Assembly (NCBI GenBank): GCA_024277375.1 | Contig: JAJRVD010000053.1 | Coordinates: 8,680 to 72,679 of the forward strand | Direction: 5' to 3' | DNA: 64,000 bases | DNA from: Candidatus Omnitrophota bacterium | GTDB taxonomy: Bacteria; Omnitrophota; Gorgyraeia; Tantalellales; Tantalellaceae | Shown here: positions 4,180-61,868 of the stretch, in pieces | How positions within the stretch are numbered: the stretch's first letter is position 1 | Layout: every line of letters begins with the position of its first letter | Notes under the pieces: model-generated | Seen by the model: only the letters and a program-made list of their open reading frames with translations | Told to the model about the DNA's origin: nothing | Databases searched by the model: none | Position numbers and translations under genes: made by a program

Positions 4180-4198
4180 GAGGGCTAAAGGAGTGGTA

Positions 4199-4795: not shown

Positions 4796-4811
4796 GAGGA
4801 AAGTGTTTGCG

Positions 4812-7393: not shown

Positions 7394-7416
7394 CATCCGC
7401 TGGTATAAAAGGGTGA

Positions 7417-7476
7417 GTTGTGTATACTTCCTACCAGGCATAGCCTGTACGGAAGCATACACAACTTCCGTTTTCG
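7417..7476 (+). terminator. Strong hairpin (about 15-bp stem with an inner 5-bp hairpin in the loop) followed by a T-run, downstream of gmd
   Basis: gttgtgtatacttcc ... ggaagcatacacaac, then ttccgttttcg. Confidence 0.4.
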
Positions 7477-7523
7477 TGAAATATGTTTTTTAAAAAATCA
7501 AAAAGAGAGAGGAGTAGGACGAA

Positions 7524-19881: not shown

Positions 19882-19882
19882 G

Positions 19883-20617: not shown

Positions 20618-20707
20618 TGAATTCGCGGAGGAAATTGTCCTCCGGTGTACTGACAACAACTAAAAGTTCTTTGTGATCTCTGTGGTTGAAAAAAAAGGAG
20701 AAGGAAG

Positions 20708-24998: not shown

Positions 24999-25093
24999 TC
25001 TAACAGAAAAACTCTATTTTATCAAGGAAAAATATAGCCGCATTTGGCATCTAGTGACCACTGATGACATCTAATGACCGAGGGAGAAACCTG

Positions 25094-25121
25094 TTGATAA
25101 TATGCACTATCTTGATATAAT
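25094..25121 (+). promoter_or_regulatory. Sigma70-like promoter (TTGATA, 16-nt spacer, TATAAT) in the divergent intergenic region
   Basis: -35 TTGATA at 25094..25099 and -10 TATAAT at 25116..25121, about 50 nt upstream of ATG 25171 with RBS aaggggga. Confidence 0.35.
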
Positions 25122-25170
25122 ATCACTGATGTACTATGAGTTATGTGTTGTTTAATCTATAAGGGGGAAC

Positions 25171-25446
25171 ATGGAGATCAAATCTAACGAGGTATACACT
25201 ACTCAGGAAGTTCAGGAACTGCTGAAGGTAAGCTCCAGCACAACTATGCGCCTTATAAAGAAGGGCATTATCCGTACCGCGAAAGTGGGCAAACAGTACC
25301 GGGTATTGGGGAAGGAACTACTCAGGCTTGTTTCTCCTGAATTGGAGGACAAGGTCGGAAAAGTGTATAACAAGGGCCGTCATTGGCTCCATGAAGGTGT
25401 AGTCGAGGAAGATTCGGACTCAAACACACAAAACAGGAAGAGGTAG
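25171..25446 (+). CDS. Small helix-turn-helix DNA-binding protein (excisionase/MerR-like HTH)
   Basis: YTTQEVQELLKVSSSTTMRLIKKGIIRTAKVGKQYRV is a typical HTH_17-like DNA-binding segment. It is the first gene of the long + operon. Confidence 0.55.
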   Translation: MEIKSNEVYTTQEVQELLKVSSSTTMRLIKKGIIRTAKVGKQYRVLGKELLRLVSPELEDKVGKVYNKGRHWLHEGVVEEDSDSNTQNRKR

Positions 25447-25448
25447 AC

Positions 25449-26447
25449 ATGGCAAAAATTCTTATTACCGGTGGTGCGGGATATATTGGAAATGTCATTA
25501 GCAGTGTGGCGTTGCAAAATGGTCATAATGTGAGGGCTATTGACCTTTTATGGTTTGAAAAAGACATTCCGATGGTTCACATGTCCAATCCGTCATATGA
25601 ATTCACAAGGGGTGACATATGTGATGAAGATCTTGTAAATAAAATGTTGGAAGGCGTAGATTTTGTTATTCATACAGCCGCGATCGTTGGAGAACCTGCC
25701 ACAAAAAAATTTCCGGACCTAACAAAAAAAATAAATCAGGATGCTTCTCTGAGTCTTATCAAAAAGGCCGGAGGAGCCGGGGTGAAGGGTCTTATCTTTT
25801 TATCTACCTGTTCCAATTACGGGATAGCAGATGGTATCGCGACCGAAGATACGACTTTGCAGCCGCTTTCACCTTATTCGGAAACAAAAGTAAATGTTGA
25901 GAAGTATTTGATGAATGAGGTTAAAGGTCTTGATTGGGTTATATGCAGGCTTTCTACCGTATACGGAGTTTCGCCAAGAATGAGATTTGATCTGACAGTA
26001 AACGATTTCACGATGAATGCCTATGTTAACAAGTATCTGGACGTTTTTATGCCTCGTTCATATCGTCCATATGTACACGTTTTTGATGTTGCCAGGGTAT
26101 TGATGAATGTTATCGGAAGTTTTGAGCAAGTTAAAAACAATGTATTTAATGTTGGATTTGAGGGCGAAAATTATCAAAAAATACAGATAGCCGATATGGT
26201 TAAGAAATATATACCGGATATTAAGATAGATATTGTTGAAAAAGGTACGGACCTCAGGGATTATCAAGTAGATTTTTCAAAGCTGAAGAAGTATTTTGAT
26301 CTGGAAAAGACCCATATCGTGGAAGATGGGGTCAAAGAAGTTGTGAATTTATTGGAGATGGGGCTTGTGGCCGATCCCCTGGATAGCAGTTATTATAATA
26401 CTACCCCTGATATCGGAGACGGAGAACAAAATGCGACTAGAACTTGA
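25449..26447 (+). CDS. NAD-dependent epimerase/dehydratase (SDR). Candidate nucleotide-sugar 4,6-dehydratase of the nonulosonate pathway.
   Basis: ILITGGAGYIGN Rossmann motif and SPYSETK (YxxxK). Confidence 0.65.
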   Translation: MAKILITGGAGYIGNVISSVALQNGHNVRAIDLLWFEKDIPMVHMSNPSYEFTRGDICDEDLVNKMLEGVDFVIHTAAIVGEPATKKFPDLTKKINQDASLSLIKKAGGAGVKGLIFLSTCSNYGIADGIATEDTTLQPLSPYSETKVNVEKYLMNEVKGLDWVICRLSTVYGVSPRMRFDLTVNDFTMNAYVNKYLDVFMPRSYRPYVHVFDVARVLMNVIGSFEQVKNNVFNVGFEGENYQKIQIADMVKKYIPDIKIDIVEKGTDLRDYQVDFSKLKKYFDLEKTHIVEDGVKEVVNLLEMGLVADPLDSSYYNTTPDIGDGEQNATRT

Positions 26448-27530
26448 TGCTCCGAATGTCGGAGAATTGGAAAAGAAATGTGTATGCGGTACGATAGATT
26501 CCGGTTTTGTCTCCACATTTGGGCCGAATGTAACGAAATTCGAGGAAAAATTTGCCGAATATCTCGGTTCACAAAAGCTGTCTCCACCCAAAGTGGAACA
26601 GCGGCACTCCATGCGGCGCTTTATGAGCTAGGAATAGGTGAGGGGGACGAAGTGATCGTTCCCGCTCTGACTTTTGTGGCAACAGTAAATCCCGTTATGT
26701 ATGTAGGCGCGCGTCCCGTTTTTGCGGATGTGAATATCAATACATGGAATATAGATCCCTCGGCGATAGAGAAAAATATCACTCCAAAGACAAGGGCGAT
26801 AATTCCTGTTCATCTTTATGGGAATCCTTGTGAAATGGATAAGATAATGGAGATAGCAAAAAAGCATGGTCTTTTTGTTATAGAAGATGCTACAGAAAGC
26901 CTGGGCGCTCAGTACGCCGGAAGGTATACGGGGACTTATGGTGATTATGGTTGTTTTAGTTTTAACGGCAATAAGACTATTACGACAGGTGGAGGTGGGA
27001 TGATAGTTGGAAACGATCCGGAAGGCATGGATCATCTGAAGTTTTTAGTAAATCAAGCGAGAGATGAGACCAGAGGGTACTTCCATCCGGAAGTGGGGTT
27101 TAACTACAGAATGACAAATTTGGAAGCCTCCATGGGTCTGGCACAGATGGAGCGTTTGGAAGAGTTGTCTAACAAAAAAGAACGTATACACGCGATATAT
27201 CAAGAAGAACTTGCAGGCGAGAGCTGTATAGATCTGCAGCTGGAATATGAAGGGGGTGTAAGTTCCTGGTGGTTTAATTGTATTTATTTCACCGATGGAA
27301 TGGATCTGGCGGATGTTATGAGACGCTTAAAAAATGAAGGTATTCCGACGCGACGGGTATTTATGCCTATAAACCAGTTTCCTCCGTATGAACGATGTGG
27401 ATCCGGGGATCTCGAAAATTCTCAGAAAATTTACGAAAGAGGCTTGTGTCTGCCGAGTTCTACGTTGAACCGGGAGGAAGACATAGGGTTCGCGTGTAGG
27501 AAAATTAAAGAGCTAATAGCTATTGGCTGA
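26431..27530 (+). pseudogene. DegT/DnrJ/EryC1 aminotransferase (LegC/PseC-like position) with a frameshift in an A-run near 26573..26576 (or a sequencing error)
   Basis: ATG 26431 gives MRLELDAPNVGELEKK ... FAEYLGSQK, then falls out of frame. ORF 26478..27530 continues KAVSTQSGTAALHAALYELGIGEGDEVIVP. One extra A would fuse them. Confidence 0.7.
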
Positions 27531-27542
27531 TGAGAGGTTGAT

Positions 27543-28199
27543 ATGTCTGAGAAAATAATATTAGTTGGCGGCGGTGGACATTGTAAAGTGGTGATAGACG
27601 CTATAAAAAAAGCCGGTATTTTTGAGGTAGAAGGGGTGCTTGATCCAGCGCAGACAGATGATATCCTCGGAGTGAAAATTTGTGGGAACGACAATAAGAT
27701 GAAAGAATTATTTGAAAAAGGCATAAAGAACGCGTTTATCACTGTGGGTTCCACCGGTGATTGTTCCTTGAGAAAAAAGTTATACAAAAAAGCTAAAGAT
27801 ATTGGATTCGAGTTCCCTGTGATAATTCATCCTCGCGCGGAAATAGCGGACGATGTCGGGGGCGAGATTGGTTGCGGAACGTTTATCGCCGCGTCAGCAA
27901 CAGTAAATCCGGGAACGAAAATAGGTGAGAATGTTATTGTCAATACTTCTGCTTCGGTTGATCATGATTGCGTTATAGGCGATTTTGCTCATATTGCTCC
28001 GGGTGCGGTGCTAAGCGGAGGAGTTGAAGTTGGTGAAGAAGCGCATATTGGAACAGGGGCCAACATTACCCAGTACGCGCGGATAGAGAAGGGCGAACTT
28101 GTTAAAGCCGGGAGTCTGGTTTTTAAGAGTAATACGCGAAAAAAAACGTATGTGTGGCCTATGCCTGCAAACGAAGAAAGTGAAAATAATGTCTTATGA
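27543..28199 (+). CDS. NeuD/PglD-family hexapeptide-repeat N-acetyltransferase
   Basis: KIILVGGGGHCKVVIDAI N-terminal Rossmann-like domain plus left-handed beta-helix hexapeptide repeats. Confidence 0.7.
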   Translation: MSEKIILVGGGGHCKVVIDAIKKAGIFEVEGVLDPAQTDDILGVKICGNDNKMKELFEKGIKNAFITVGSTGDCSLRKKLYKKAKDIGFEFPVIIHPRAEIADDVGGEIGCGTFIAASATVNPGTKIGENVIVNTSASVDHDCVIGDFAHIAPGAVLSGGVEVGEEAHIGTGANITQYARIEKGELVKAGSLVFKSNTRKKTYVWPMPANEESENNVL

Positions 28200-29199
28200 A
28201 AAAGTTTTTATAATAGCCGAGGCCGGAGTTAATCATAACGGTAGTTTGGAGACCGCTAGAAAGATGATAGACGCGGCTTCTGAGGCCGGTGTGGACGCGG
28301 TGAAATTCCAAACGTTTCGTGCTGAGAACATAGCGAGCGCTAACGCTCCTAAAGCGTATTATCAGAAAAATACTACTTGCGAGGATGAATCACAGCTTGA
28401 AATGTTAAAAAAACTGGAATTGGACGAAGACGCACATAAAGACCTTAAGGTATATTGTGAGAAAAAAGATGTTATGTTCCTTTCAACTCCGTTCGATCTC
28501 GAAAGTGTGGATATGCTTGAAGATATGGGTCTAGCCCTGTTTAAAGTGCCTTCGGGCGAGATCACGAATCTGCCATACCTGAGAAAGATAGGGGCGTTAA
28601 GGAAGAAGATAATATTGTCCAGTGGGATGTCGAACCTTGATGAAATAGAAGACGCTATTATGGTGCTTGTTGCCGCGGGAACGCGGAAGGAAGACATTAC
28701 GGTGTTGCAATGTAATACCGAGTATCCGACGCCGTATGAAGATGTGAATTTACGCGCGATGTCCACGATAAGAGAATCCTTTGGTGTTGATGTCGGATAT
28801 TCCGACCATACTCTTGGAATAGATATCGTCTCTGCCGCGGTAGGCTTGGGCGCCAGCGTGATCGAGAAACATTTCACACTTGATCGTCAAATGGAAGGCC
28901 CTGATCACGCGGCTTCATTGGAACCTGAGCAGCTTAGGAGGATGGTAGAAGTAATAAGGAACACGGAACTAGCTATGGGTGATGGAATTAAAAAACCGTC
29001 ATCTTCGGAATTTAAAAACATAACGGCAGTTCGGAAAAGTATAGTCGCGGCATGTCCGATCGCTGTCGATGAGGTTTTCACCGAAGATAATCTTACGGTT
29101 AAAAGACCGGCAACGGGTATAAGTCCCGTGGAGTGGGATAATGTTCTTGGAAAGTCCGCAAAGCGGGATTTTGGTCGAGATGAGGCGATTGAGCTATGA
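28189..29199 (+). CDS. NeuB-family nonulosonic acid synthase (PEP-condensing; LegI/PseI/NeuB-like)
   Basis: FIIAEAGVNHNGSLETARKMIDAASEAGVDAVKFQTF is the NeuB signature, with a C-terminal SAF/antifreeze-like domain. Confidence 0.8.
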   Translation: MSYEKVFIIAEAGVNHNGSLETARKMIDAASEAGVDAVKFQTFRAENIASANAPKAYYQKNTTCEDESQLEMLKKLELDEDAHKDLKVYCEKKDVMFLSTPFDLESVDMLEDMGLALFKVPSGEITNLPYLRKIGALRKKIILSSGMSNLDEIEDAIMVLVAAGTRKEDITVLQCNTEYPTPYEDVNLRAMSTIRESFGVDVGYSDHTLGIDIVSAAVGLGASVIEKHFTLDRQMEGPDHAASLEPEQLRRMVEVIRNTELAMGDGIKKPSSSEFKNITAVRKSIVAACPIAVDEVFTEDNLTVKRPATGISPVEWDNVLGKSAKRDFGRDEAIEL

Positions 29200-30080
29200 G
29201 AATAGTATTTGTCGGTACTGTTGAGTTCAGCCGTAGAATGTTAGAAAAATTGATATCCATGGAAGCTTTAATAGTGGGTGTCATAACAAAGAAGACGTCA
29301 GAGGCTAACGCTGATTTTTCGGATCTTTCCGGATTATGTGAAGACAAGGATATACCGTACAAGTATGTTACGGATATAAATTCACCGGATAGTGAGGAGT
29401 GGATAAAGGATAGAGAGCCCGATATTATTTTATGCTTAGGTTTTTCTCAAATATTGGAAGAAAAGATATTGAAAATCGCTCCTATGGGGGTGGTGGGGTA
29501 TCACCCGGCAAAATTACCGCAAAATCGTGGCAGACATCCGATAATTTGGGCGCTGGTCCTGGGGCTTAAGAAGACGGCATCTACTTTCTTTTTTATGGAT
29601 AAAGGTGCTGATAGCGGGGATATATTAAGCCAGGAGGAGATCGAGATCGATACCGAGGACGACGCGGGTACGCTCTACGAAAAGGTCGTGCAGACAGCCT
29701 TGAGTCAACTCAATGATATTTTGCCGCAATTGGAAGGGAAGACGTTTGATCTGATATCACAGAATGGCGTGGAAACGAATTATTGGAGAAAACGTAATAT
29801 GGAAGACGGACGCGTTGATTTTAGGATGACCGCGAGGGCGGTTTGCAACCTGATTAGAGGACTGACCCGGCCATATGTGGGCGCTCATATCAGATATAAT
29901 AACGCGGACATTAAGGTCTGGAAGGCAAAAGAAATAATAACAGACTTCGAGAATTGTGAATATGGCAAGGTTTTGGATGTAAGCGGCGGGCAAATACTAG
30001 TGAAGTGTATGGAGAACGCTGTTCTTTTTATGAAACATGAGTTTAACAAGTTACCCGAAACGGGGGATTATTTGATATGA
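29196..30080 (+). CDS. Formyltransferase (Fmt/ArnA-N-like); candidate amino-sugar N-formyltransferase
   Basis: Formyl_trans_N pattern: VVGYHPAKLPQNRGRHPIIWAL ... DKGADSGDIL. Confidence 0.65.
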   Translation: MRIVFVGTVEFSRRMLEKLISMEALIVGVITKKTSEANADFSDLSGLCEDKDIPYKYVTDINSPDSEEWIKDREPDIILCLGFSQILEEKILKIAPMGVVGYHPAKLPQNRGRHPIIWALVLGLKKTASTFFFMDKGADSGDILSQEEIEIDTEDDAGTLYEKVVQTALSQLNDILPQLEGKTFDLISQNGVETNYWRKRNMEDGRVDFRMTARAVCNLIRGLTRPYVGAHIRYNNADIKVWKAKEIITDFENCEYGKVLDVSGGQILVKCMENAVLFMKHEFNKLPETGDYLI

Positions 30081-30745
30081 AAAATGTTCTGGTATTGGCC
30101 GCTCATCCTGATGATGAGACTTTGGGGTGTGGAGGAACGTTGCTAAGGCACAAGGCGAATGGAGACCGTATCCACTGGCTTATCGCTACGGGTATGTCGA
30201 AAGAGGAGGGGTTCGCGTCGGCGGATATATCTCGAAGAGATAAAGAGATCGAGAAAGTAAGGGGACTGTATGCTTTTGATGGGGTCAGCAAACTAGATAT
30301 TCCTACGACAAAAGTGGATGATGTCCCCATTAATGAGTTGGTGGAAAAGATCTCAAAGGTGTTTCGGGAAGTTGAACCGGAGATATTGTATTTGCCTTTC
30401 AGGGGAGATGTTCATAGTGATCATCGTATGCTTTTTGACGCGGCGTATAGTTGTACGAAAACATTCCGATATCCGTTCATAAAAAAGATCCTTATGATGG
30501 AAATAATAAGTGAAACGGAATTCGTTCCGGGATTCAAGGATGCGGTATTTATCCCGAATTATTTCGTGAACATAGGTAGTTTTCTTGAAAAAAAGATCGA
30601 GATAATGAAGACCTTTGAAAGTGAGCTGGGGGAACAACCTTTTCCGAGAAGTCTTGAGAACATTAGAGCGCTGGCGACGTTCAGAGGAGCAATGTCGGGT
30701 TGTGATCACGCGGAAAGTTTTATGATCTTGAAGGAGATATCGTGA
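30077..30745 (+). CDS. PIG-L/LmbE-family N-deacetylase
   Basis: VLAAHPDDETLGCGGT motif. Confidence 0.75.
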   Translation: MKNVLVLAAHPDDETLGCGGTLLRHKANGDRIHWLIATGMSKEEGFASADISRRDKEIEKVRGLYAFDGVSKLDIPTTKVDDVPINELVEKISKVFREVEPEILYLPFRGDVHSDHRMLFDAAYSCTKTFRYPFIKKILMMEIISETEFVPGFKDAVFIPNYFVNIGSFLEKKIEIMKTFESELGEQPFPRSLENIRALATFRGAMSGCDHAESFMILKEIS

Positions 30746-31917
30746 GAAGGAAGATCTGTGTTTTTACGGGCACACGGGCTGAATACGGTCTTTTGAAGCC
30801 TTTAATGTCGGAAATAAAAGAGGATGAGGGGCTGGATCTGTTTGTAATAGTTTCCGCGATGCATTTGTCGGGAGAATTTGGTCTGACGTATCGAGACATA
30901 GTGGAGGATGGGTTCGAAATAAACGAGAAAGTGGATACAGGGCTTGATTCTGATACATCGATCGGGTTAAGCGCTTCAATGGGAAGAGGAATAGCGGGTA
31001 TTAGTGAAGCTTATTCCAGGTTGGCTCCGGATGTTGTTGTAGTGTTGGGCGACAGGGTCGAGGCTTTTGCGGCCGCCGCGGCGGCAATGATGTCGAGGAT
31101 CCCGATCGCTCATCTGCATGGAGGAGAATCAACTCGGGGGTTGATAGATGAGGCTATAAGACATTCCATTACAAAAATGAGTCATCTTCATTTTACTTCT
31201 GTAGAAGAATATCGAGGCAGAGTGATACAGATGGGAGAACAGCCCGATAAAGTATTCAACGTGGGTGCGATAGGCTTAGATAATATACGGGATATAAATC
31301 TGTTGTCAAAAGAAGAATTGGAAAAAGATCTGGGGATAAAGTTCGGGAAATATAATTTTCTGGTTACATTCCATCCTGTCACACTGGAAGAGGGCGAGTC
31401 CGGAAAACATTTTCGGGAATTATTGGATGCATTAGACCGGAATGCTCATATAAACGCTATCTTTACAAAAGCGAACGCTGACCATGAGGGCAGTGTTATC
31501 AACCGTATGATAGATGAGTATGTTTCTGAGAATAGCGATAGGTCCGTGGTATTTACTTCAATGGGACAGTTACGCTATTTGTCCGCAATGCGTGTGGTAG
31601 ACGCCGTTGTTGGTAATTCTTCAAGCGGGATAATTGAGGCTCCCAGTTTTGGTGTAGGGACAATAAATATCGGGGATAGGCAGGGTGGACGGGTTAGTGC
31701 CGATAGTGTAATAGATTGCGCACCTCGTAAAAGTGACATTATTGCCGCCATTGAAAAACTTTACTCTGAAGATTTTCAGGCAAGTTTATCCGATGTTTTT
31801 AATCCATACGGTGATGGTGGTGTCGCTAAACGCGTGAAAGATGTTTTAAAGAGTTGTGATCTGGCAAATATATTGAAAAAAGTTTTCTATGACATATCAG
31901 GGCAGGTGAAAATATGA
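30742..31917 (+). CDS. UDP-N-acetylglucosamine 2-epimerase, hydrolysing (NeuC/LegG-like)
   Basis: VFTGTRAEYGLLKPL, HLHGGE and GNSSSG blocks of the NeuC/WecB family. Confidence 0.75.
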   Translation: MRRKICVFTGTRAEYGLLKPLMSEIKEDEGLDLFVIVSAMHLSGEFGLTYRDIVEDGFEINEKVDTGLDSDTSIGLSASMGRGIAGISEAYSRLAPDVVVVLGDRVEAFAAAAAAMMSRIPIAHLHGGESTRGLIDEAIRHSITKMSHLHFTSVEEYRGRVIQMGEQPDKVFNVGAIGLDNIRDINLLSKEELEKDLGIKFGKYNFLVTFHPVTLEEGESGKHFRELLDALDRNAHINAIFTKANADHEGSVINRMIDEYVSENSDRSVVFTSMGQLRYLSAMRVVDAVVGNSSSGIIEAPSFGVGTINIGDRQGGRVSADSVIDCAPRKSDIIAAIEKLYSEDFQASLSDVFNPYGDGGVAKRVKDVLKSCDLANILKKVFYDISGQVKI

Positions 31918-32669
31918 AAAATGTGAGGGTAGTGGCGAGATTGGATGTTAAGCCTCCTTATGTGATAAAAGGGGTCCATTTTGAAGGGTTGCGAAAAGTG
32001 GGCACCCCCGAAGGTCTTGCCGGTAAATATTATGAGCAGGGAGTGGATGAGGTCTTTTACATCGATTGTGTGGCAAGTCTTTATCAAAGAGAGATATTGT
32101 ATGATTTTGTGGAAAAGACGGCTAAGAATATATTTGTTCCTTTTTGTGTAGGCGGAGGGGTTAAGAATGTCGATGATGTCGCCAGGCTTCTTCACAGTGG
32201 CGCGGATAAGGTTCTTATGAATACATATGCTATACAGACTCCGGGTCTTATTAAGGAGGCCGCTGAGATATTTGGAAGTCAATGCGTAGTGGTCTCGATA
32301 GAAGCCAAAAAGTGGGATGGATGGTGGGAATGTTATACCGATTGCGGCAGGATCAGAACCGGTAAAAATGCCGTGGAATGGGCAAAAGAAGCGGAAGACC
32401 TGGGGGCGGGTGAAATACTTGTTACTTCGGTTGACACAGAGGGAAGAAGGAAAGGGTTTGACGTTGAACTTACCCGGAAGATATCGGAAAATACAACGGT
32501 TCCTGTAGTCGCTTCAGGTGGAGCAGGTGATCTTTCTCATATTAAAAATGTTATCGAAGATGGTTACGCGGACGCGGTAAGTATCGCATCTCTTTTGCAT
32601 TACGATGAATTTTCTGTAGGTCAAATTAAGGAATTTCTCGCTTCACAAGGAATAGGGGTTGTCATATGA
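31914..32669 (+). CDS. HisF-like cyclase subunit (WbuZ-type, glycan amidine synthesis)
   Basis: (beta/alpha)8 HisF blocks: VPFCVGGGV ... VASGGAGDLSH. Located inside the glycan cluster and paired with a HisH-like gene. Confidence 0.8.
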   Translation: MKNVRVVARLDVKPPYVIKGVHFEGLRKVGTPEGLAGKYYEQGVDEVFYIDCVASLYQREILYDFVEKTAKNIFVPFCVGGGVKNVDDVARLLHSGADKVLMNTYAIQTPGLIKEAAEIFGSQCVVVSIEAKKWDGWWECYTDCGRIRTGKNAVEWAKEAEDLGAGEILVTSVDTEGRRKGFDVELTRKISENTTVPVVASGGAGDLSHIKNVIEDGYADAVSIASLLHYDEFSVGQIKEFLASQGIGVVI

Positions 32670-33271
32670 GTCAGAAAATAGGTGTTGTCGACTATGGGTA
32701 TGCCGGGAATGTTTTTAATATTAGAAAAACCATTGAGAATACCGATAAGACTGTAAGTACTATGATCATAAAAACACAGCAAGATGTTAAAAAAGCGGAT
32801 AAGATCGTTTTGCCGGGCGTTGGATCCTATAAAGACGTGATGGAAAAGATCACCGATCTTAGTGCTATGCTCGAAGAGCAAATACAAAATAAACCTACAC
32901 TTGGAATATGTTTGGGAATGCAGATACTTTCAGAAAAAGGATATGAATTCGGAGAGACTAAAGGGTTCAGTGTGATAGAAGTAGAGGTAAGAAAAATGCC
33001 GGTAAAAGGAAGAGTTCCTCATATAGGATGGGCGCGTATTGAGCCGATAAAGAATTCAAGGATATTAGCCGGTGTGACCTCTGATGATAGTTTTTATTTT
33101 ATGCATTCGTATGAGCTGATAAACTACAAAGATGTTATCGCTTTGTCGGATTATTGTGAACACAAGTTCGTATGCGCGATTGAAAGAGATAATGTTTTCG
33201 GAGTGCAATTCCATCCCGAAAAGAGCAGGGATAGCGGGTTCAGGGTATTCAAGAATTTTATAAACGTATGA
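32666..33271 (+). CDS. HisH-like glutamine amidotransferase subunit (WbuY-type)
   Basis: Class I GATase: GICLGMQIL (catalytic Cys) ... FGVQFHPEKS. Confidence 0.8.
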   Translation: MSQKIGVVDYGYAGNVFNIRKTIENTDKTVSTMIIKTQQDVKKADKIVLPGVGSYKDVMEKITDLSAMLEEQIQNKPTLGICLGMQILSEKGYEFGETKGFSVIEVEVRKMPVKGRVPHIGWARIEPIKNSRILAGVTSDDSFYFMHSYELINYKDVIALSDYCEHKFVCAIERDNVFGVQFHPEKSRDSGFRVFKNFINV

Positions 33272-33288
33272 TAAAGGAGTGGGGCATC

Positions 33289-34524
33289 ATGGAGCGATGT
33301 AATGCTGTAAATAAAAAAGAAGAACAAAGTACAGGGATGTATGGACTCCCCACTGAGGTTAAATTCTGTAAAAAGTGTGTTATGTCCAATCAAAGGCCCT
33401 CTTCCTGTATTGAGTTTAAAAATAAACCGGGCGATAAGAAAAAAACCATTGCTTTTGATGAAGATGGTGTTTGTGACGCGTGCAGGTTCGCGGAAAAGAA
33501 AAAAAATATTAACTGGGAAGAAAGGGAGCAGCAGTTAAAAGAGGTTTTAGATCGGTTCCGCAGTAAGGACGGTAGTTACGATGTTGTGGTCCCGGGTAGC
33601 GGAGGTAAGGACAGTGTAGTTGCCTCATACGTTTTGAAATATAAATATGGCATGCATCCGTTGCTTGTTACCTGGCCTCCGCATAGTTATACTCATATGG
33701 GGAGAGTTAATTTTCAGGCATGGGTGAACGCGGGTTTTGATAATATCAGCTATATGCCGAACCAGAAAGCTCACAGGTTGGTTACGCGTTTGGCTTTTGA
33801 GAACCTTGTCCATCCTTTTCAGCCTTTTATTATCGGGCAAAAAAATCTAGCTCCAAAGATATCGGCTATGTATAACATTCCGTTCGTGGTTTACGGGGAG
33901 AATGAAGCTGAATATGGAAACCCTGTGGATGATAACGATAGCGCTACCAGAGACAGTTCTTTTTATACGCATGATGAGAATTTGGAAAATGTACGTCTTG
34001 GAGGTGTAAGTGCCGTAAAGCTAATGAAAGATCATGGTTTGACCAGAGCGGACTTGGATCCTTATCTTCCGGTTGCCTCCGATCTTCTCAGGAAGGTCGG
34101 CACTGAAGTCCATTATCTTGGATATTATATGAAGTGGGATCCGCAGGAAAGTTATTATTTTTCAGTTGAGAATACTGATTTTTATCCTAACTGCGAACGT
34201 ACGGAAGGCAGCTACAGTAAATATAACAGTCTTGATGACAAAATAGATTGGTTCCATTTCTATACTTACTATATAAAATTCGGGATAGGAAGAGCTACTT
34301 ATGACGCATCGCAGGAAGTCAGGAACGGTCATTTGACCAGAGACGAAGGAGTGCGTTTAGTGAAACGGTTCGACGGGGAATTCCCGCGCAAATACTTTAA
34401 AGACAATCTTGACTATATGGGCATAACAGAAGAAAAGTTTTACGAAATAATTGAAAAAGCACGACCGCCTCATTTGTGGGAGAAAATCAAAGGTGAGTGG
34501 CGGCTTAAACACCAGGTGGGGTGA
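33289..34524 (+). CDS. N-acetyl sugar amidotransferase, PP-loop ATP pyrophosphatase (WbuX/PseA-like). Alternative upstream start 33268.
   Basis: VVPGSGGKDS PP-loop motif. RBS aaggagtgggg before ATG 33289. Confidence 0.7.
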   Translation: MERCNAVNKKEEQSTGMYGLPTEVKFCKKCVMSNQRPSSCIEFKNKPGDKKKTIAFDEDGVCDACRFAEKKKNINWEEREQQLKEVLDRFRSKDGSYDVVVPGSGGKDSVVASYVLKYKYGMHPLLVTWPPHSYTHMGRVNFQAWVNAGFDNISYMPNQKAHRLVTRLAFENLVHPFQPFIIGQKNLAPKISAMYNIPFVVYGENEAEYGNPVDDNDSATRDSSFYTHDENLENVRLGGVSAVKLMKDHGLTRADLDPYLPVASDLLRKVGTEVHYLGYYMKWDPQESYYFSVENTDFYPNCERTEGSYSKYNSLDDKIDWFHFYTYYIKFGIGRATYDASQEVRNGHLTRDEGVRLVKRFDGEFPRKYFKDNLDYMGITEEKFYEIIEKARPPHLWEKIKGEWRLKHQVG

Positions 34525-34526
34525 GT

Positions 34527-35585
34527 ATGAATTGGAAGAAACTTCTTGTAAAAGATGAACTGTCGGTGAAGGATATTCTTAAAAGAATGGATGCCGGCGG
34601 CGAAAAGATACTGTTTATAGTCGGAGAGCATGATAGGCTTAAGGGAGTTATTACTGACGGGGATATAAGACGTCATTTTCTGTCTCATGGAAGTTTGGAC
34701 GAACAAGTCGGGAAGATCTATAATCCCGAACCTTTGTACGTTTTTAAGGGGTACGACAGGCAGGATGTAAAACAGCTAATGGCAAACGAAAAGATCGAAG
34801 TAGTGCCGGTAGTGGATCAGGATAAACATGTTATAGGTGCTTTGTCCTGGACGGATATTTTCGGCAAAGAGAATATTATGCTTGCCGGAACAGTTAACGT
34901 GCCTGTAGTAATAATGGCGGGAGGCAAAGGGAAAAGGTTGGATCCTTTTACAAAGATATTGCCGAAGCCGCTTATCCCTGTGGGAGAAAAGCCAATTATC
35001 GAAATAATAATGGATGAGTTTAATCAATATGGTGTAGAGGACTTTTATGTCACTCTGAACTACAAGGGCGAAATGATAAAGATCTATTTCGCTAACGCGG
35101 AGAAAGAGTATAACGTAAGGTATGTCAGAGAAGAAGAGTTTCTGGGAACGGCGGGAAGTCTTAAACTCTTGCCCGAGAATATAGGGGATACGTTTATAGT
35201 GTCTAACTGCGATATAATAGTGAATATTGACTATGGGGACCTGATAAAGTTCCATAAAGATAATGGCAATTGTCTGACGATAGTTGGATCAATACAACAC
35301 CACAGGATCCCGTATGGTGTTATTGACTTTGAGAAGGAAGGAAAGCTTAAAAAAATAGAAGAAAAACCGGAACTTGATTTTACCGTAAATACGGGGGTTT
35401 ATGTGCTGTCAAAGAAGGTTGTAGACGCTATCCCGGAAAATAAACATTTTGATATGACAGATCTTATTCAAGCTCTTATGGATGATAAGGAAAATATAGG
35501 AGTTTACCCGGTGTCACAAAAATCATACATCGATATAGGGCAGTGGGAGGAATATAAGAAACATATTGAAAATTTGGTGATCTAA
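34527..35585 (+). CDS. CBS-pair + sugar-phosphate nucleotidyltransferase (PtmE-like)
   Basis: Two CBS motifs at the N-terminus, then the NTP-transferase GGKGKRLDPFTKILPKPLIPVGEKPII. Confidence 0.65.
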   Translation: MNWKKLLVKDELSVKDILKRMDAGGEKILFIVGEHDRLKGVITDGDIRRHFLSHGSLDEQVGKIYNPEPLYVFKGYDRQDVKQLMANEKIEVVPVVDQDKHVIGALSWTDIFGKENIMLAGTVNVPVVIMAGGKGKRLDPFTKILPKPLIPVGEKPIIEIIMDEFNQYGVEDFYVTLNYKGEMIKIYFANAEKEYNVRYVREEEFLGTAGSLKLLPENIGDTFIVSNCDIIVNIDYGDLIKFHKDNGNCLTIVGSIQHHRIPYGVIDFEKEGKLKKIEEKPELDFTVNTGVYVLSKKVVDAIPENKHFDMTDLIQALMDDKENIGVYPVSQKSYIDIGQWEEYKKHIENLVI

Positions 35586-35588
35586 ACT

Positions 35589-36320
35589 ATGCGAAAAGAT
35601 AAAAAGATACTGGGAATAGTACCCGCAAGGGGTGGTAGCAAAGGTATTCCAGGTAAAAACATCAAGAATATCGCCGATAAGCCATTAATCTGGTGGACGA
35701 TACAGGAAGCTAAAAAGTGTGGTCTATTGGATAGAACTATTGTGAGTACTGATGACGAGGAAATTTCCAACGTGGCGGTTAATTGTGGTGCCGAAGTTCC
35801 TTTTACGCGTCCCGCCGAAATTTCCGGGGATAACGCGACGTCAGTAGATCTGGTGCTTCATGCTGTTGAATACTTTCGTCAAAAAGGGGAAGAATTCGAT
35901 CTGTTTGTTTTGTTACAACCGACTTCGCCGCTAAGAACAAGTGAGGATATAAGATGTGCTATAGATGTTCTCTTTGATAGGGAGGCTGAGATGGTAGTCT
36001 CGGTTACGCGGTCTTCATCTCATGCGTTATGGACAAATGAGCTGCCTGAAAACGGATGTATGAAAGATTTTTTACCAAAGCGGGTCGTTAATAAACCGCG
36101 GCAGGAAATGCCGGTGGTTTTTCATCCGAACGGAGCGATTTTCGCGGGGGTTATCGATCGATTGGAAAATAACAGACAATTTTATGGAGACAGAACATTT
36201 GCCTACATAATGCCTAAGGAAAGATCCGTTGATATCGATGATATGCTGGACTTTGAGTTGGCGGAAGTTCTGCTTAATAGATCTATCAGGAAAGATCATA
36301 AGATTAGCGAGGAGCGTTAA
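35589..36320 (+). CDS. Acylneuraminate cytidylyltransferase family (CMP-nonulosonate synthetase, NeuA/LegF-like)
   Basis: ILGIVPARGGSKGIPGKNIK ... LLQPTSPLR motifs. Confidence 0.8.
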   Translation: MRKDKKILGIVPARGGSKGIPGKNIKNIADKPLIWWTIQEAKKCGLLDRTIVSTDDEEISNVAVNCGAEVPFTRPAEISGDNATSVDLVLHAVEYFRQKGEEFDLFVLLQPTSPLRTSEDIRCAIDVLFDREAEMVVSVTRSSSHALWTNELPENGCMKDFLPKRVVNKPRQEMPVVFHPNGAIFAGVIDRLENNRQFYGDRTFAYIMPKERSVDIDDMLDFELAEVLLNRSIRKDHKISEER

Positions 36321-36324
36321 CACA

Positions 36325-38214
36325 ATGATCATTGTGGATGATATAAGTTTTGTTAAGCGGAATATCGACGAGATCAAAAAGATCGTGGCTTATGAGGGTG
36401 GTCCGGTAGTTCCACTGTCGGACCCGGTGCTTCTGTTGTTAAGGTCGAAAGGTATAGAGTGTATGGATTATCATGATCTTGAGTCTGCCGGGATGTATGA
36501 AGACGTCTATGCTACCGCGCGGGATTGGGGTTTGCGGTGGTATAAGCCCGAAGGGACAGATCTATCCGAGTTCGGGACATATTCTCCGGGAGCTCTTCTT
36601 GAATGGTCCATGATATTTTTCTTTTCTCATGTCCTTAAGGTGTATCTTGTTCTATCTGAATTGATCAAAAGAGGTGACGCGAGAAAAATAGTATGTATAG
36701 CCGCCAACGATTTTGATCTAAAAAAGTGTTCGATCAAATTGCAGAACATTGACGCGGGACTTCTAGGGCATATTGTACGTGAGGTTAGCGGAGAGGCGCA
36801 ACAACCGGTCGAGTTTAAGCTTGTAAAATTACCGTATCCTAATGAACTTGAAGAACGGAAATTTCATTTTGTTAGATCGGCGGGAAACTATGTAAATCTT
36901 CTCGTATCGGGAGTTTGTTCGTTTTTTGAAAGGTTTTTTCGTGAAAACAGAAAAATACTCTTCTTAGAAGGAGCGCATCATTTTTTTGAGATAATGAAGT
37001 CCCCTTCGTTGAAAAAGATCAAAAAAGTTCATTTTGAAAAGAACGTTGGATTATCGTTGTTCCCGAAGATGTACTCAAATGGAATAAGGATAGTTACACA
37101 CGATAACAGAAAACCAAAAACACCTGAAAAAGGAAACTGTTTTAGCCCGGATAAAATTGACAACGTGCTTTCCGGGTTTTTTATGTACAGGGGCAAAGAT
37201 ATCTTTTCTTTGGTATCGCCCCGGCTAAAGTTTATGTTCGAGGATTATTTTCCCAATGTTGTTTTTTCGGATATTATCGCTGTTGAAAAGATGTTAAAGG
37301 CCGAGTCTCCCGACTTGATCGTGACGGAGAATGATACAACATATTTTGAGAAGATGCTGACAGTTATAGCGAAGAGGTTGTCTATCCGAACTGCCGTTGT
37401 TCAGCATGGCGCGACGTTATGCGAGGATGCCTGTGATAATAAGGGGATCATGGTCCATGACTTTTATCCTTTGACCGCGGACATGTTTTTCGCTTTTGGT
37501 AAGACTACCAAAGATTGGTTTACGAAGATGAAAGTCGATCCCGGAAGGGTAATAGTGACGGGAGGCGCGAGGTTCGACGAATATTACAGGGATAAAGTTT
37601 TAGTAAAGGATAAGCGTAATAAGGCCAGGAAGGTAGCGTTGATATTGCTTAGTGATATGTGGCTGAAAGAAGGAGTCGTTACTCATTATGCCGGGATGAC
37701 CATATTTCATAAGCATATACAGGAGTTCATGAAACTGGCAGAGAAAAATCCGGATATAGATTTTATAATAAGACCGCATGACAATACTCATTTGTGGAGT
37801 GAAGTGTTCAGAAAAGAACTTGGCGTGCTTAATAACATTACGATCTCGCGTGAGAGTGGGCTTAAAGATCTTTTTTCGCGGGTGGATATTGTGATCGGAT
37901 ATTGGTCAACCGCGCTTTTTGAGGCGTTGATCTATGATATTCCGGTCATAAGTCTGGATACGGGAGAATACTATAATCTGTTACCTTTATGGCGGTACGA
38001 GCTTTCTGAAAGGGTCGGGTCTTTCGAGGAATTGGAAAGCGCGCTACGGAAATTTATCCATAACAGAGTTGAAAGAGAGCTGTTTATAAAGGAAACATCC
38101 GAAAAATTGCACCTATTCAATTATGACAATGATGGCAGAGCGGCACAGAGGATAGCGGATGGACTTGGAGAAGTTATCTCGAAACCGAAACCATTGAAGA
38201 GGTGCGCGTTATGA
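36325..38214 (+). CDS. Hypothetical 629-aa protein; candidate nonulosonate/capsule glycosyltransferase (GT-B-like C-terminal half)
   Basis: No firm motif. C-terminal FIIRPHDNTH ... RVDIVIGYWSTALFEALIYDIPVISLD resembles GT-B / glycerophosphotransferase-like folds. Its position directly after the CMP-sugar synthetase is the main argument. Confidence 0.3.
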   Translation: MIIVDDISFVKRNIDEIKKIVAYEGGPVVPLSDPVLLLLRSKGIECMDYHDLESAGMYEDVYATARDWGLRWYKPEGTDLSEFGTYSPGALLEWSMIFFFSHVLKVYLVLSELIKRGDARKIVCIAANDFDLKKCSIKLQNIDAGLLGHIVREVSGEAQQPVEFKLVKLPYPNELEERKFHFVRSAGNYVNLLVSGVCSFFERFFRENRKILFLEGAHHFFEIMKSPSLKKIKKVHFEKNVGLSLFPKMYSNGIRIVTHDNRKPKTPEKGNCFSPDKIDNVLSGFFMYRGKDIFSLVSPRLKFMFEDYFPNVVFSDIIAVEKMLKAESPDLIVTENDTTYFEKMLTVIAKRLSIRTAVVQHGATLCEDACDNKGIMVHDFYPLTADMFFAFGKTTKDWFTKMKVDPGRVIVTGGARFDEYYRDKVLVKDKRNKARKVALILLSDMWLKEGVVTHYAGMTIFHKHIQEFMKLAEKNPDIDFIIRPHDNTHLWSEVFRKELGVLNNITISRESGLKDLFSRVDIVIGYWSTALFEALIYDIPVISLDTGEYYNLLPLWRYELSERVGSFEELESALRKFIHNRVERELFIKETSEKLHLFNYDNDGRAAQRIADGLGEVISKPKPLKRCAL

Positions 38215-39677
38215 GCGAACGTAAGAAAAATATAATTAAGGATGTGACTGCCTATGGAGTGGGTAGGTACATTGCTCAGTTCGTCGGTTTTTTTATAGCT
38301 GTTTTAATGAGAAATTTTCTCGGCCCGCTGCAAATGGGTATGTGGAGTTTGGTTAAGGTGGTTTTGAGTTATGCCATCTATAGCGAGGTAGGAATAACGC
38401 AGGCGGTATATTATAAGATCCCGCTTCATAACGGAAAAGGTGAACGCGACGAAGCGGAAAACATACAGAACGTGGTTTTTGCTTTTATGATACTCGCGAG
38501 TGTGCTTGCCAGTATTTTGATACTCGCGGCAGCTATCATTTTGAAGGACAAAATGCCGAGGGAGCTGTTTGTGGGGTTTCTGGTCTTTCCGGCGTTCTTT
38601 CTCGCGCAAAGGGTATATTCTTACCATGTAATGCTGTTGCGAGCGAACAAAAAGTTTTTTGTCTTAAGTAAAACGTATATATTCGATAGCCTGTTCAACG
38701 TTTTGCTCGTCCTTGTGGTAGTAGGCAAGTTCAGGTTGTATGGTCTGTACGCCGTAAGTGTTTTATTGCCGGTGCTTGATATCTGTTACATAAGGCGTAA
38801 CGTGAAATATAAGATCAAATGGAAGATCATGTGGGACAAGATCGGCGAGTACATAAAATTCGGGTTTCCCGTATTCGTGTCGGGCATATCAATGTTGATG
38901 CTGTATAGCGTCGACAGGATCATGATAGCGAAAATGATAGGGTTGGTTCCGTTAGGTTATTATTCTATCGCTGTCATGACCAGAACGTATACCGCGGAAC
39001 TTTCTGGAAGTTTCGCGGCGGTTCTGTCTCCTTATTTTATCGAAGACTATGGAAAAACGGGGGACATTTCAAAGACAGGAAAGGCGATAACGACGTATAC
39101 GGAGATCATCTCATGTGCTATGGCTATTATCCTCGGGCTTACATATTTGTCATTCCCCGTTTTTGTGCATTACGCTATGCCTAAGTTCTATCCCGGTGTT
39201 CCAGCTATGAAATTAATGCTTGTATGTACGTTTTTTGTGGTTATCGCGATGCAATTGAGGAATCTGTTGATAATGAAGGATAAGCAGACTACGTTGATGA
39301 AAATATCACTTTTTGCCATTGTGTTGAATGTTTGTGTTAACTATGCCGCTATAAGGTCCGGTTTCGGGATCGCGGGGGTCGCTGGAGCCAGTGTCATATC
39401 GGCATTTTCACTGTTTATACTTGTTGCCGCGAGCGCGATACATCATATCAAAGATGTAAAGCTCATGCCGTTTTTAACATATATAGCTATGCTGTTTATG
39501 TATTTTGTGTTGAGCATTTACGCTATTGAGAACATAGTATCTTTGGAAAATCTTATTTATGGGGCTCTGGCTAAGATATTATTGTTTTTGACGGTAGCGA
39601 TCGGTGCTGTTTATTATGTGAACAAGAGGACAGGTGTTATTAATATTGTGCTGGAAGCCATAAGGAAGAAAAAATGA
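38211..39677 (+). CDS. Wzx-like MOP-superfamily oligosaccharide flippase
   Basis: About 12 TM segments in the size range of polysaccharide biosynthesis proteins. ATGA overlap with the upstream gene. Confidence 0.6.
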   Translation: MSERKKNIIKDVTAYGVGRYIAQFVGFFIAVLMRNFLGPLQMGMWSLVKVVLSYAIYSEVGITQAVYYKIPLHNGKGERDEAENIQNVVFAFMILASVLASILILAAAIILKDKMPRELFVGFLVFPAFFLAQRVYSYHVMLLRANKKFFVLSKTYIFDSLFNVLLVLVVVGKFRLYGLYAVSVLLPVLDICYIRRNVKYKIKWKIMWDKIGEYIKFGFPVFVSGISMLMLYSVDRIMIAKMIGLVPLGYYSIAVMTRTYTAELSGSFAAVLSPYFIEDYGKTGDISKTGKAITTYTEIISCAMAIILGLTYLSFPVFVHYAMPKFYPGVPAMKLMLVCTFFVVIAMQLRNLLIMKDKQTTLMKISLFAIVLNVCVNYAAIRSGFGIAGVAGASVISAFSLFILVAASAIHHIKDVKLMPFLTYIAMLFMYFVLSIYAIENIVSLENLIYGALAKILLFLTVAIGAVYYVNKRTGVINIVLEAIRKKK

Positions 39678-49452: not shown

Positions 49453-49453
49453 T

Positions 49454-59726: not shown

Positions 59727-59735
59727 GCTGGATAT

Positions 59736-61825: not shown

Positions 61826-61868
61826 GCGCCGTATCGCCTTCGGCGATGGGCGGCGAAGTATAAATATG

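Follow-up and report, generated by a model that had tools for sequence, protein, structure and literature searches.

Does an operon that carries the synthase, epimerase, and aminotransferase families of a legionaminic acid (Leg) pathway, but an unfamiliar enzyme at its first step, still make a sugar of the Leg type? The operon in question lies in a 64,000-nucleotide stretch of DNA from a Candidatus Omnitrophota bacterium (GenBank assembly GCA_024277375.1, contig JAJRVD010000053.1, positions 8,680 to 72,679 of the forward strand), which we analyzed as a whole and refer to as the window; all positions are those of the window. A reading made earlier from the sequence (the original prediction) placed at 25449-36320 a complete nonulosonic acid pathway of the legionaminic or pseudaminic type, with tailoring of its amino groups by acetamidino and formyl groups. 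In our proposal, one operon spanning roughly 25171 to 39677 encodes the synthesis and activation of a CMP-linked 5,7-diamino nonulosonate and probably also its transfer; the sugar would be of the Leg type, as judged from the NeuB/LegI, LegG, and LegC families of the operon, and we put the probability of this reading at about 0.6. The first enzyme, a short-chain dehydrogenase/reductase (SDR) with the motif STCSNYG, stands where known Leg pathways have the dehydratase LegB, and it is the part of the pathway that needs most discussion.

Organization of the operon

Open reading frame (ORF) calls on the window gave twelve co-directional ORFs on the + strand between 25449 and 36320. All of the genes that the original prediction had listed there were present, in the same order, and Pfam and NCBIfam scans supported each of the twelve family assignments far above chance, with E-values from 1e-14 to 1e-151 (Table 1). 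When starts were corrected for the LegC gene (26431) and for the NeuB gene (ATG 28189 rather than TTG 28099), nine of the eleven gene junctions were overlaps of 4-17 nucleotides (nt), mostly 4 nt, and the remaining two were gaps of 12 and 3 nt; because of these overlaps we regard the genes as one translationally coupled operon. The operon is longer than the region first described, extending from 25171 to 39677 and adding a candidate regulator at its beginning and a candidate transferase and a flippase at its end. The regulator, a small helix-turn-helix (HTH) protein, is encoded by the first gene, whose stop lies 2 nt ahead of the SDR start, and with 83% identity to its counterpart in the syntenic locus L008 (related loci in other genomes are given L numbers here) it is the most conserved protein of the syntenic block. 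The top-scoring promoter-like site on the + strand within 24800-39800 sits in the 172-nt gap that separates a divergent radical S-adenosylmethionine (radical-SAM) gene from the HTH gene. At the other end, the transferase and flippase genes continue directly downstream of the CMP-synthetase gene without a break. The candidate transferase is a tentative assignment: the C-terminal region of this 629-amino-acid (aa) protein, about 160 aa, scored 70 bits on the BFO_1060 glycosyltransferase family (cut-off 200) and 54 bits on a "surface carbohydrate biosynthesis protein" model (cut-off 125), and a motif scan of the protein did not find the HP and D/E-D/E-G transferase motifs.

Typing of the core enzymes

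To type the enzymes we used profile bit scores relative to the curated cut-offs of the models, the best matches among solved structures, gene neighborhood, and motif scans. The NeuB protein passed the NeuB/LegI model, and therefore belongs with nonulosonate synthases, as originally predicted, rather than with KDO8P or DAHP synthases. Its best match among solved structures was SpsE of Bacillus subtilis (191 bits), with PseI at 179 bits and NeuB of Neisseria meningitidis at 177 bits, and these matches alone do not separate Leg, pseudaminic acid (Pse), and sialic acid synthases; SpsE is required for legionaminic acid synthesis in B. subtilis (PMC7439481). No available model discriminates LegI from NeuB, TIGR03569 covering both. 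On the PseI model the protein scored 288 bits, under the cut-off of 340, and its identity was 59-67% to NeuB proteins of Leg-like loci and 35-36% to those of loci containing PseB and PseG. The NeuC protein had its top matches to the solved structures 5zlr and 5xvs, both [quoted passage not shown], at 334 bits, as against 162 bits to human GNE and 47 bits to the UDP-GlcNAc 2-epimerase 6vlb. For the pyridoxal phosphate (PLP)-dependent aminotransferase the LegC model TIGR04181 was the best model, the PseC model giving 269 bits (cut-off 423.5), and the top solved match was 7b0m with 487 bits. The PseB model gave 38 bits with the operon SDR (cut-off 408), and neither a PseG nor a PseH homologue was found among the scanned ORFs, a NeuC-type epimerase being present instead. 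We concluded from these comparisons that the core enzymes are, by family, legionaminic-type and not pseudaminic-type, so that of the two types offered in the original prediction the first was retained and the second was dropped.

The last core enzyme, the cytidylyltransferase, scored 148 bits with solved CMP-Neu5Ac (N-acetylneuraminic acid) synthetases and no more than 38 bits with KdsB structures; on the PseF model it reached 165 bits (cut-off 206) and on the KdsB models at most 71 bits (cut-offs 155-281), and thus it resembles the CMP-sialate enzymes that had been expected and not a CMP-Kdo synthetase. The PtmE-like protein has the predicted architecture, with both CBS and nucleotidyltransferase domains, and its gene is conserved in the Leg-like loci L001-L005, L010, and L014-L016. 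The C4 aminotransferase, the N-acetyltransferase, and PtmE are all conserved parts of the gene unit in related loci.

Tailoring enzymes

Two gene groups of the operon would modify the amino groups of the sugar. The first is the pair that encodes the formyltransferase-like (Fmt-like) protein and the PIG-L deacetylase. A scan of a genome collection with the Fmt-like protein found six full-length loci (L001-L006), in metagenome-assembled genomes (MAGs) of Planctomycetales, Hyphomicrobiales, Bacteroidota, Flavobacteriaceae, Campylobacterota, and Gammaproteobacteria. Each of the six has a PIG-L gene (47-60% identity) after the Fmt-like gene, with NeuC neighboring; PtmE and NeuA were present in L002-L005 and NeuB in L003-L005, and L001 carried the full set of LegB, LegC, NeuD, NeuB, Fmt, PIG-L, NeuC, PtmE, WbuZ, WbuY, WbuX, and NeuA. 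Across at least five phyla the two genes are thus conserved as a pair next to NeuB/NeuC. PIG-L has the metal-site motifs HPDD at residue 10 and HSDH at residue 113. The Fmt-like protein scored 113 bits with the N-terminal domain of ArnA. The gene pair is common, with more than 5,700 homologues of the Fmt-like protein at E <= 1e-30; it belongs to no curated family, and its biochemistry is limited to one preprint. The exchange of an N-acetyl for an N-formyl group, proposed from this gene pair at the outset, fits both the conservation of the pair in L001-L006 and mass spectrometry of nonulosonates from Candidatus Kuenenia stuttgartiensis, described below.

Comparison with L008 suggested a mosaic ancestry for this part of the operon (29196-31917, relative to L008 12764-14952). 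NeuB was closest to its L008 counterpart (67% identity); NeuC was only 49% identical to that of L008 and 58-60% identical to NeuC proteins encoded beside Fmt and PIG-L in other phyla. In L008 the NeuB and NeuC genes are adjacent, with neither Fmt nor PIG-L between them. Because NeuC is closer to the Fmt/PIG-L-linked proteins than to that of L008, the Fmt-PIG-L-NeuC block seems to have been exchanged as a unit.

The second group is the trio predicted to turn an N-acetyl into an acetimidoyl group. A PP-loop amidotransferase with HisH-like and HisF-like subunits is the arrangement of WbuX, WbuY, and WbuZ in the FucNAm pathway of Escherichia coli O145 and of PseA and the HisH/HisF homologues in Campylobacter jejuni. 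In the operon the wbuZ, wbuY, and wbuX genes are adjacent and overlap by 4 nt. WbuX exceeded the cut-off of its model, matched the solved "N-acetyl sugar amidotransferase" 8wex with 524 bits, and has the PP-loop motif SGGKDS at residue 111; WbuY has the glutaminase Cys motif GICLGMQ and an HPE motif; and WbuZ, which was assigned by context, scored 267 bits on TIGR03572 (cut-off 300) and 290 bits on the HisF model (cut-off 295). Judged by these motifs and scores the trio is intact, in agreement with its designation as WbuXYZ/PseA-type machinery. It differs from the known systems in its substrate, presumably a nonulosonate or its hexose precursor.

Table 1. Genes and sites of the operon, with one distant dehydratase candidate (positions in the window; scores in bits, model cut-offs in brackets)
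Feature	Positions	Strand	Basis
Promoter-like site TTGATA-16 nt-TATAAT, TG before the -10 hexamer	25094-25121	+	11/12 consensus matches; consensus match only
Small HTH_17 (excisionase/MerR-like) DNA-binding protein, candidate regulator, first gene of the operon	25171-25446	+	PF12728, 47.5
Extended SDR, STCSNYG subfamily, Cj1427-like	25449-26447	+	PF01370, 2.4e-35
LegC-family PLP (DegT) aminotransferase, 1-nt frameshift	26431-27530	+	PF01041, 1.7e-102
NeuD/PglD-type hexapeptide N-acetyltransferase, putative LegH role	27543-28199	+	TIGR03570, 190 (161); PglD_N and Hexapep
NeuB/LegI-type nonulosonate synthase	28189-29199	+	PF03102, 1.5e-100; TIGR03569, 504 (400)
Fmt/ArnA-like two-domain formyltransferase homologue	29196-30080	+	PF00551, 79; PF02911, 60
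PIG-L/LmbE-family N-deacetylase	30077-30745	+	PF02585, 81.5
LegG-type hydrolyzing NDP-sugar 2-epimerase (NeuC)	30742-31917	+	TIGR03568, 483 (236)
WbuZ, HisF-like barrel subunit of amidotransferase	31914-32669	+	PF00977, 7e-63; context
WbuY, HisH-like glutaminase subunit	32666-33271	+	TIGR01855, 206 (105)
WbuX/PseA-type PP-loop N-acetyl sugar amidotransferase	33268-34524	+	TIGR03573, 345 (203)
PtmE-like CBS pair and sugar-1-phosphate nucleotidyltransferase	34521-35585	+	CBS, 50.6; NTP_transferase, 128
CMP-nonulosonate synthetase, LegF/NeuA-type	35589-36320	+	PF02348 (CTP_transf_3), 94.7
629-aa candidate nonulosonate transferase, weak assignment	36325-38214	+	C-terminal ~160 aa, BFO_1060 family
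Wzx-type polysaccharide flippase	38202-39677	+	PF13440, 45; PF01943, 36.5; overlaps preceding gene
LegB-related SDR, dehydratase motif TSSSEIYG	61945-62913	+	TIGR04180 best family, 242 (475)

Evidence against the pathway, including the aminotransferase frameshift

Several observations, taken up here and in the next section, weigh against a functioning pathway to a Leg-type sugar. Three concern single assignments. The LegC, WbuZ, and PseF-type models scored just under their curated cut-offs; the solved matches of the PtmE-like protein include both guanylyl- and uridylyltransferases and do not decide between GDP and UDP; and the Fmt-like protein, although His103 and Asp139 are invariant in its family, has an invariant Gly101 at the position of the triad Asn (in seven of seven aligned members). 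As the family lacks the Asn of the Asn-His-Asp triad, formyl transfer is not assured; we predict it as likely.

A further observation is that the aminotransferase gene is frameshifted as assembled. In its long ORF (26478-27530) the first 30 or so residues have no match, and the LegC profile aligned only from position 37. The N-terminus, MRLELDAPNVGELEKK...EYLGSQK, is encoded in another frame, from an ATG at 26431 that is preceded by GGAG; the overlap with the end of the SDR gene is 17 nt. The two frames join if the AAAA run at 26573-26576 is read as five A residues instead of the four assembled. The repaired protein of 366 aa scored 404.7 bits on TIGR04181 (cut-off 420) over profile positions 2-359 of 359, as compared with 356 bits for the unrepaired one, and it is colinear with intact genes, with 64% identity to that of L008, 67% to L016, and 59% to L001. 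Since the gene is disrupted as assembled, the pathway works only if the missing A is an assembly error.

Two more genes of the window are disrupted, which is compatible with real decay. An MBOAT/DltB-like gene (21484-22928) consists of two overlapping ORFs with a 1-nt frameshift, where four T residues are assembled at 21958-21961 and a fifth restores the conserved YVSFFPQLVAGPIER; and a GT2 glycosyltransferase gene (9542-10261) has an in-frame TAA at 9593-9595, codon 18 (PAYNEE*RIGATL), because of which the ORF finder starts the gene only at GTG 9659. With three lesions in 64 kb, the aminotransferase frameshift could be real and part of the ongoing decay of a variable glycan island, leaving the pathway inactive. 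We consider this rather unlikely. Loss of one base from a short homopolymer, a classic signature of sequencing or assembly error, accounts for two of the three lesions; every other gene of the operon is full length with its catalytic motifs intact; and the out-of-frame N-terminal part of the aminotransferase is still well conserved. The single-base losses look like assembly errors, which sequence alone cannot separate from decay. Phase variation is an unlikely cause of the frameshift, as the A-run of 4-5 nt is too short for a phase-variable tract.

The first enzyme of the pathway

The remaining observations that weigh against a Leg pathway concern the SDR. On the LegB model TIGR04180 it scored 68 bits (cut-off 475); true LegB proteins encoded beside LegC in L001 and L005, loci with otherwise the same genes, scored 501 and 530 bits and carry the motif TSTSEVYG. 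The motif STCSNYG of the operon SDR was invariant in 120 of its 120 closest homologues and has Cys and Ser at the positions of the dehydratase Asp and Glu. In RmlB, Gmd, and LegB-type SDR dehydratases, Asp and Glu are the acid-base residues. By these scores and residues the protein is not a recognizable LegB, PseB, or PglF 4,6-dehydratase, and no canonical 4,6-dehydratase was found in the operon (25171-39677). The designation of the SDR as a dehydratase candidate was thus not sustained, and the pathway, without a canonical dehydratase and with a frameshifted aminotransferase gene, could not be called complete.

The top solved match of the SDR was 6vo6/6vo8 (204 bits). The 6vo6 sequence is that of a C. 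jejuni protein, for which we located an orthologue with 96% identity; the operon SDR was 38% identical to this orthologue (196 bits), compared with 23% to a true LegB. The orthologue is flanked on one side by a dTDP_sugar_isom epimerase and an Epimerase-family SDR, and on the other by a GHMP kinase, a SIS isomerase, a nucleotidyltransferase, and capsule-export genes; because this neighborhood is a capsular heptose locus, we take 6vo6 to be Cj1427. Cj1427 is a GDP-heptose C4-dehydrogenase: it oxidizes its GDP-sugar at C4, causes no dehydration, and takes alpha-ketoglutarate as co-substrate (PMC10680097). In both proteins Thr, Tyr, and Lys are present and Ser replaces the dehydratase Glu, but the motif of Cj1427 is NTNSGYG, its genomic partners are heptose epimerases and reductases rather than a C4 aminotransferase in a nonulosonate operon, and its substrate is a heptose where that of the operon SDR is presumably an N-acetylhexosamine (HexNAc). 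A heptose-derived product of ten carbons, which the homology to Cj1427 had brought to mind, was set aside, there being no GmhA/HddA-type genes in the operon.

In each of eight loci examined that encode close homologues of the SDR (59-68% identity), a DegT aminotransferase gene directly adjoins or overlaps that of the SDR. MAGs make up the nearest relatives: L008, and matches in Omnitrophota and Planctomycetota. The arrangement SDR-DegT-NeuD(-NeuB-NeuC-PtmE) recurs in three of the eight: L008 (GCA_964580895.1) is syntenic with the window from CotH/VTC/DUF4956 through HTH-SDR-DegT-NeuD-NeuB-NeuC-WbuZ; L014 is compact, SDR-DegT-NeuB-NeuC-NeuD-PtmE-NeuA, and lies on a 4.8-Mb contig with housekeeping genes upstream; and L016 has MarR-SDR-DegT-NeuD-NeuB-NeuC-PtmE, with a B12-binding radical-SAM gene (41% identity) after the operon. 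L015 has SDR-DegT-NeuD-PtmE and a glycosyltransferase without NeuB, and L012 has only the SDR and DegT genes, among glycosyltransferases. In the latter two loci the SDR and DegT proteins are the only enzymes able to make an amino sugar, and therefore the SDR must supply the keto substrate. A motif scan of L008, L012, L014, L015, and L016 found no canonical dehydratase motif within 10 kb. Of the remaining three loci, L009 (4261-16889) and L010 (6055-16119) carry STCSNYG SDR-DegT-NeuD-PIG-L together with an RmlD-like reductase and a true PseB (487 bits in L009, 479 in L010), and L011 is a 3.7-kb fragment with the same SDR-DegT-NeuD-PIG-L module as L010. The NeuB of L009 and L010 is divergent (308 bits, under both the NeuB and PseI cut-offs), and a PseG-like gene is present in L009 and perhaps in L010; these clusters may encode a pathway to another nonulosonate isomer.

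In these comparisons the STCSNYG subfamily repeatedly stands in for LegB in Leg-like operons of several phyla, a replacement that, as far as the searchable literature shows, has not been described. On the simplest reading the SDR would supply the 4-keto substrate for the aminotransferase, with or without deoxygenation of C6, between which its sequence does not decide. A role as 4-epimerase was rejected, as it would leave the aminotransferase of L012 and L015 with no keto substrate.

The C6 question separates two possible products. If the SDR were a pure C4-dehydrogenase like Cj1427, acting on a GDP-HexNAc, C6 would keep its hydroxyl and the product would be not legionaminic acid but a 5,7-diamino-3,5,7-trideoxy-nonulosonate, that is, a 7-amino-7-deoxy sialic acid with a 9-hydroxyl, here N-formylated and N-acetimidoylated. 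Alpha-ketoglutarate and glutamate would then link the SDR to the aminotransferase, the alpha-ketoglutarate released by transamination re-oxidizing the SDR-bound NADH as reported for Cj1427, and this and many other Leg-like operons would make a natural class of nonulosonates not described before. That the nearest characterized relative is Cj1427, that Cys and Ser stand invariantly where RmlB, Gmd, and LegB have Asp and Glu, that the two genes, for SDR and aminotransferase, overlap here and adjoin or overlap in all eight related loci, and that five of those loci gave no nearby dehydratase in the scan all speak for such an enzyme. Nevertheless we regard it as unlikely. LegC, NeuB, and NeuC are 58-61% identical to those of the true-LegB loci L001 and L005, an identity that suggests the same 6-deoxy substrates; the best match of NeuC acts on a 6-deoxy sugar; and dehydration could proceed with the strictly conserved Cys as a substitute acid or base. 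Natural 7-amino/9-hydroxy nonulosonates or 7-N-acyl sialic acids, moreover, were not found in the literature searched, which yielded only synthetic Neu5Ac7NAc. The alternative within this argument is that the STCSNYG SDR is a mechanistically new 4,6-dehydratase that works without the Asp/Glu pair.

A legionaminic acid stereoisomer would result if a 4,6-dehydratase were encoded elsewhere, either by the SDR gene at 61945-62913 or outside the window, with the operon SDR carrying out some other step such as an oxidation or epimerization that gives another stereochemistry. Within the window only the SDR at 61945-62913 qualifies as a dehydratase that might act in trans; LegB is its best family, and it carries a dehydratase motif. 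In B. subtilis SpsM, the Leg dehydratase, lies at a locus apart from the other sps genes (PMC7439481), and in L009 and L010 a true PseB is encoded 4-6 kb upstream of the SDR-DegT-NeuD module. However, the candidate falls far under the LegB cut-off, lies 25 kb downstream in an apparently separate amino-sugar module, and has neighbors (a methyltransferase, a different acetyltransferase, and a second formyltransferase-like gene) that look like a separate pathway, whereas the compact L014 operon has no second SDR within 10 kb and L012 and L015 have only the STCSNYG SDR to feed their aminotransferase. We therefore think a dehydratase in trans improbable. Finally, a Pse pathway or a plain Neu5Ac pathway is hardly credible, for although the names NeuB, NeuC, NeuD, and NeuA alone would fit the latter and the solved matches of NeuB discriminate neither, the PseB, PseC, and PseI scores, the hydrolyzing 2-epimerase in place of PseG and PseH, the far better match of NeuC to LegG than to the UDP-GlcNAc 2-epimerase 6vlb, and the conserved C4 aminotransferase, N-acetyltransferase, and PtmE all argue against them, and both were rejected.

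Proposed pathway

We return to the reading that we prefer, a 5,7-diamino nonulosonate of the Leg type. In the pathway that we propose, the PtmE-like enzyme would nucleotidylate a hexosamine-1-phosphate, probably with GTP, a GDP carrier being likely because of this enzyme and of the GDP-sugar relative of the SDR. The Cj1427-like SDR would generate a keto group at C4, the LegC-type aminotransferase would aminate C4, and NeuD would acetylate the resulting amine, N7 in the finished sugar; for these three the roles are suggested by family and by strict synteny. PIG-L would strip the original 2-N-acetyl (the future N5), a reaction typical of its family, and the Fmt-like enzyme would formylate the freed amine, unless the amine stays free. 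The LegG-type enzyme would then release the nucleotide and epimerize C2, and NeuB would condense the hexose with phosphoenolpyruvate. WbuY, WbuZ, and WbuX would use ATP and ammonia from glutamine to make an acetimidoyl group of a remaining N-acetyl; the cytidylyltransferase would make the CMP-sugar; and the 629-aa protein, a tentative transferase, and the flippase could deliver the sugar to a surface glycan. The analysis shows which genes and families are present, that the core enzymes are Leg-type rather than Pse-type, how the operon is organized, and that its modules are conserved; from family chemistry and gene order we infer the order of tailoring, the nitrogen that bears each group, the GDP carrier, and whether C6 (the future C9) is deoxygenated. 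A product with 5-formyl and 7-acetimidoyl groups is the most economical guess, the positions being guessed.

Comparison with known systems

The core belongs to the known Leg-type pathways, each of the three kinds of tailoring has a known or proposed counterpart elsewhere, and the overall gene set is present in public MAGs, for example L001. The GDP-Leg pathway of C. jejuni shares with the operon the families and predicted roles of the PtmE-like, N-acetyltransferase, LegG, LegI, and LegF enzymes, and probably of LegC; its LegB is a GDP-GlcNAc 4,6-dehydratase (PMC7439481), the position taken here by the Cj1427-like SDR. The operon adds the PIG-L, Fmt-like, and WbuXYZ modules to this pathway, and its acetyltransferase is of the NeuD/PglD type. 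In B. subtilis, which provides the precedent for a Leg dehydratase encoded apart from the other genes of its pathway, the sps route (PMC7439481) differs in being UDP-linked, in its PglF/CapE-type dehydratase SpsM, and in having no N-tailoring enzymes.

For the tailoring there are two precedents. In Ca. Kuenenia stuttgartiensis, CMP-nonulosonates with one formylated and one free amine were detected by mass spectrometry, and a Leg-like cluster with a deacetylase and a formyltransferase was described (bioRxiv 10.64898/2026.04.20.719630); since these groups were seen on the CMP-nonulosonates, tailoring precedes transfer there. As in our operon, the deacetylase and formyltransferase genes are embedded among leg/neu genes, a likeness drawn from the published description, but the Kuenenia cluster has a legB homologue and another gene order, and no WbuXYZ was reported. 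Halorubrum sp. PV6 has 5-N-formyl-legionaminic acid and a putative formyltransferase in its Leg cluster (PMC6137143). Like the operon, this cluster unites the putative formyltransferase with Leg genes and with a homologue of NeuD, and its product is formylated at N5; it differs in being archaeal, with an N-glycan-linked product and LegB present, and no deacetylase or amidotransferase was reported.

For the candidate transferase the relevant set comprises TFUB4_00887, BFO_1060, and Tanf_01245, Tannerella forsythia transferases for Leg or Pse derivatives, BFO_1060 being the homologue for the Leg derivative (PMC5420450). The C-terminus of the 629-aa protein matches the BFO_1060 family, but at the score given above and with the transferase motifs lacking.

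The surrounding glycan island

The window as a whole is a surface-glycan island. Its DNA has a GC content of about 42% and a GC skew that stays between +0.1 and +0.3 across all 2-kb bins; all large genes but one are on the + strand, and several GT-C and GT2 enzymes are encoded. Near the left end, two copies of an 80-nt repeat (1162-1241 and 1777-1856; 88% identical), each with an internal palindrome, GGGTTCGATTYATCGAACCC, flank a small membrane-protein ORF at 1251-1664. They are followed by a gene that resembles UDP-glucuronate decarboxylase (2021-2989; motif ...CYDEAKR) and by ATP sulfurylase, adenylylsulfate (APS) kinase, and phosphodiesterase/sulfatase-fold genes in a row (3004-6242), which would supply phosphoadenylylsulfate (PAPS) and suggest sulfated glycans. 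GDP-mannose 4,6-dehydratase (Gmd, 391 bits, cut-off 415) and a second DegT aminotransferase (6404-8651) form a GDP-perosamine-like pair. Between these and the operon lies a trio that is conserved in L008 (window 17128-21391, L008 262-4602), consisting of a CotH kinase/beta-helix protein, a VTC-domain protein, and DUF4956; CotH is a single ORF of 917 aa in the window and two genes in L008. Two B12-binding radical-SAM methyltransferase-like genes and one radical-SAM/SPASM gene (22938-24998 on the - strand, 45326-46528, and 54802-56292) suggest C-methylation of a glycan or sugar.

Downstream of the operon, a phosphonate module (46715-50566) encodes a PEP mutase-nucleotidyltransferase fusion, phosphonopyruvate decarboxylase (328 bits, cut-off 312.5), and a 370-aa protein without a family match; genes resembling CDP-alcohol phosphatidyltransferases lie nearby at 42875-43627 and 51598-52287, which suggests phosphonate-decorated glycans. 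The second amino-sugar module (58339-63374, in the interval 58-64 kb) comprises a GT2-like gene, a homologue with only the Formyl_trans_N domain (59046-59726), a methyltransferase, the LegB-related dehydratase listed in Table 1, and a hexapeptide acetyltransferase (62808-63374).

Significance

Nonulosonic acids shape how phages, immune systems, and other cells perceive bacterial surfaces, and their N-substituents determine charge and antigenicity. In this respect the operon is of interest for uniting three tailoring chemistries, deacetylation, formyl-type re-acylation, and amidination. The more useful lead, in our opinion, is the first enzyme, a conserved SDR subfamily at the place of LegB without the catalytic residues of a dehydratase, which could point to a novel mechanism of dehydration or, alternatively, to a novel family of 9-hydroxy diamino sialic acids. 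Settling the function of the STCSNYG SDR would correct the automatic annotation of many genomes.

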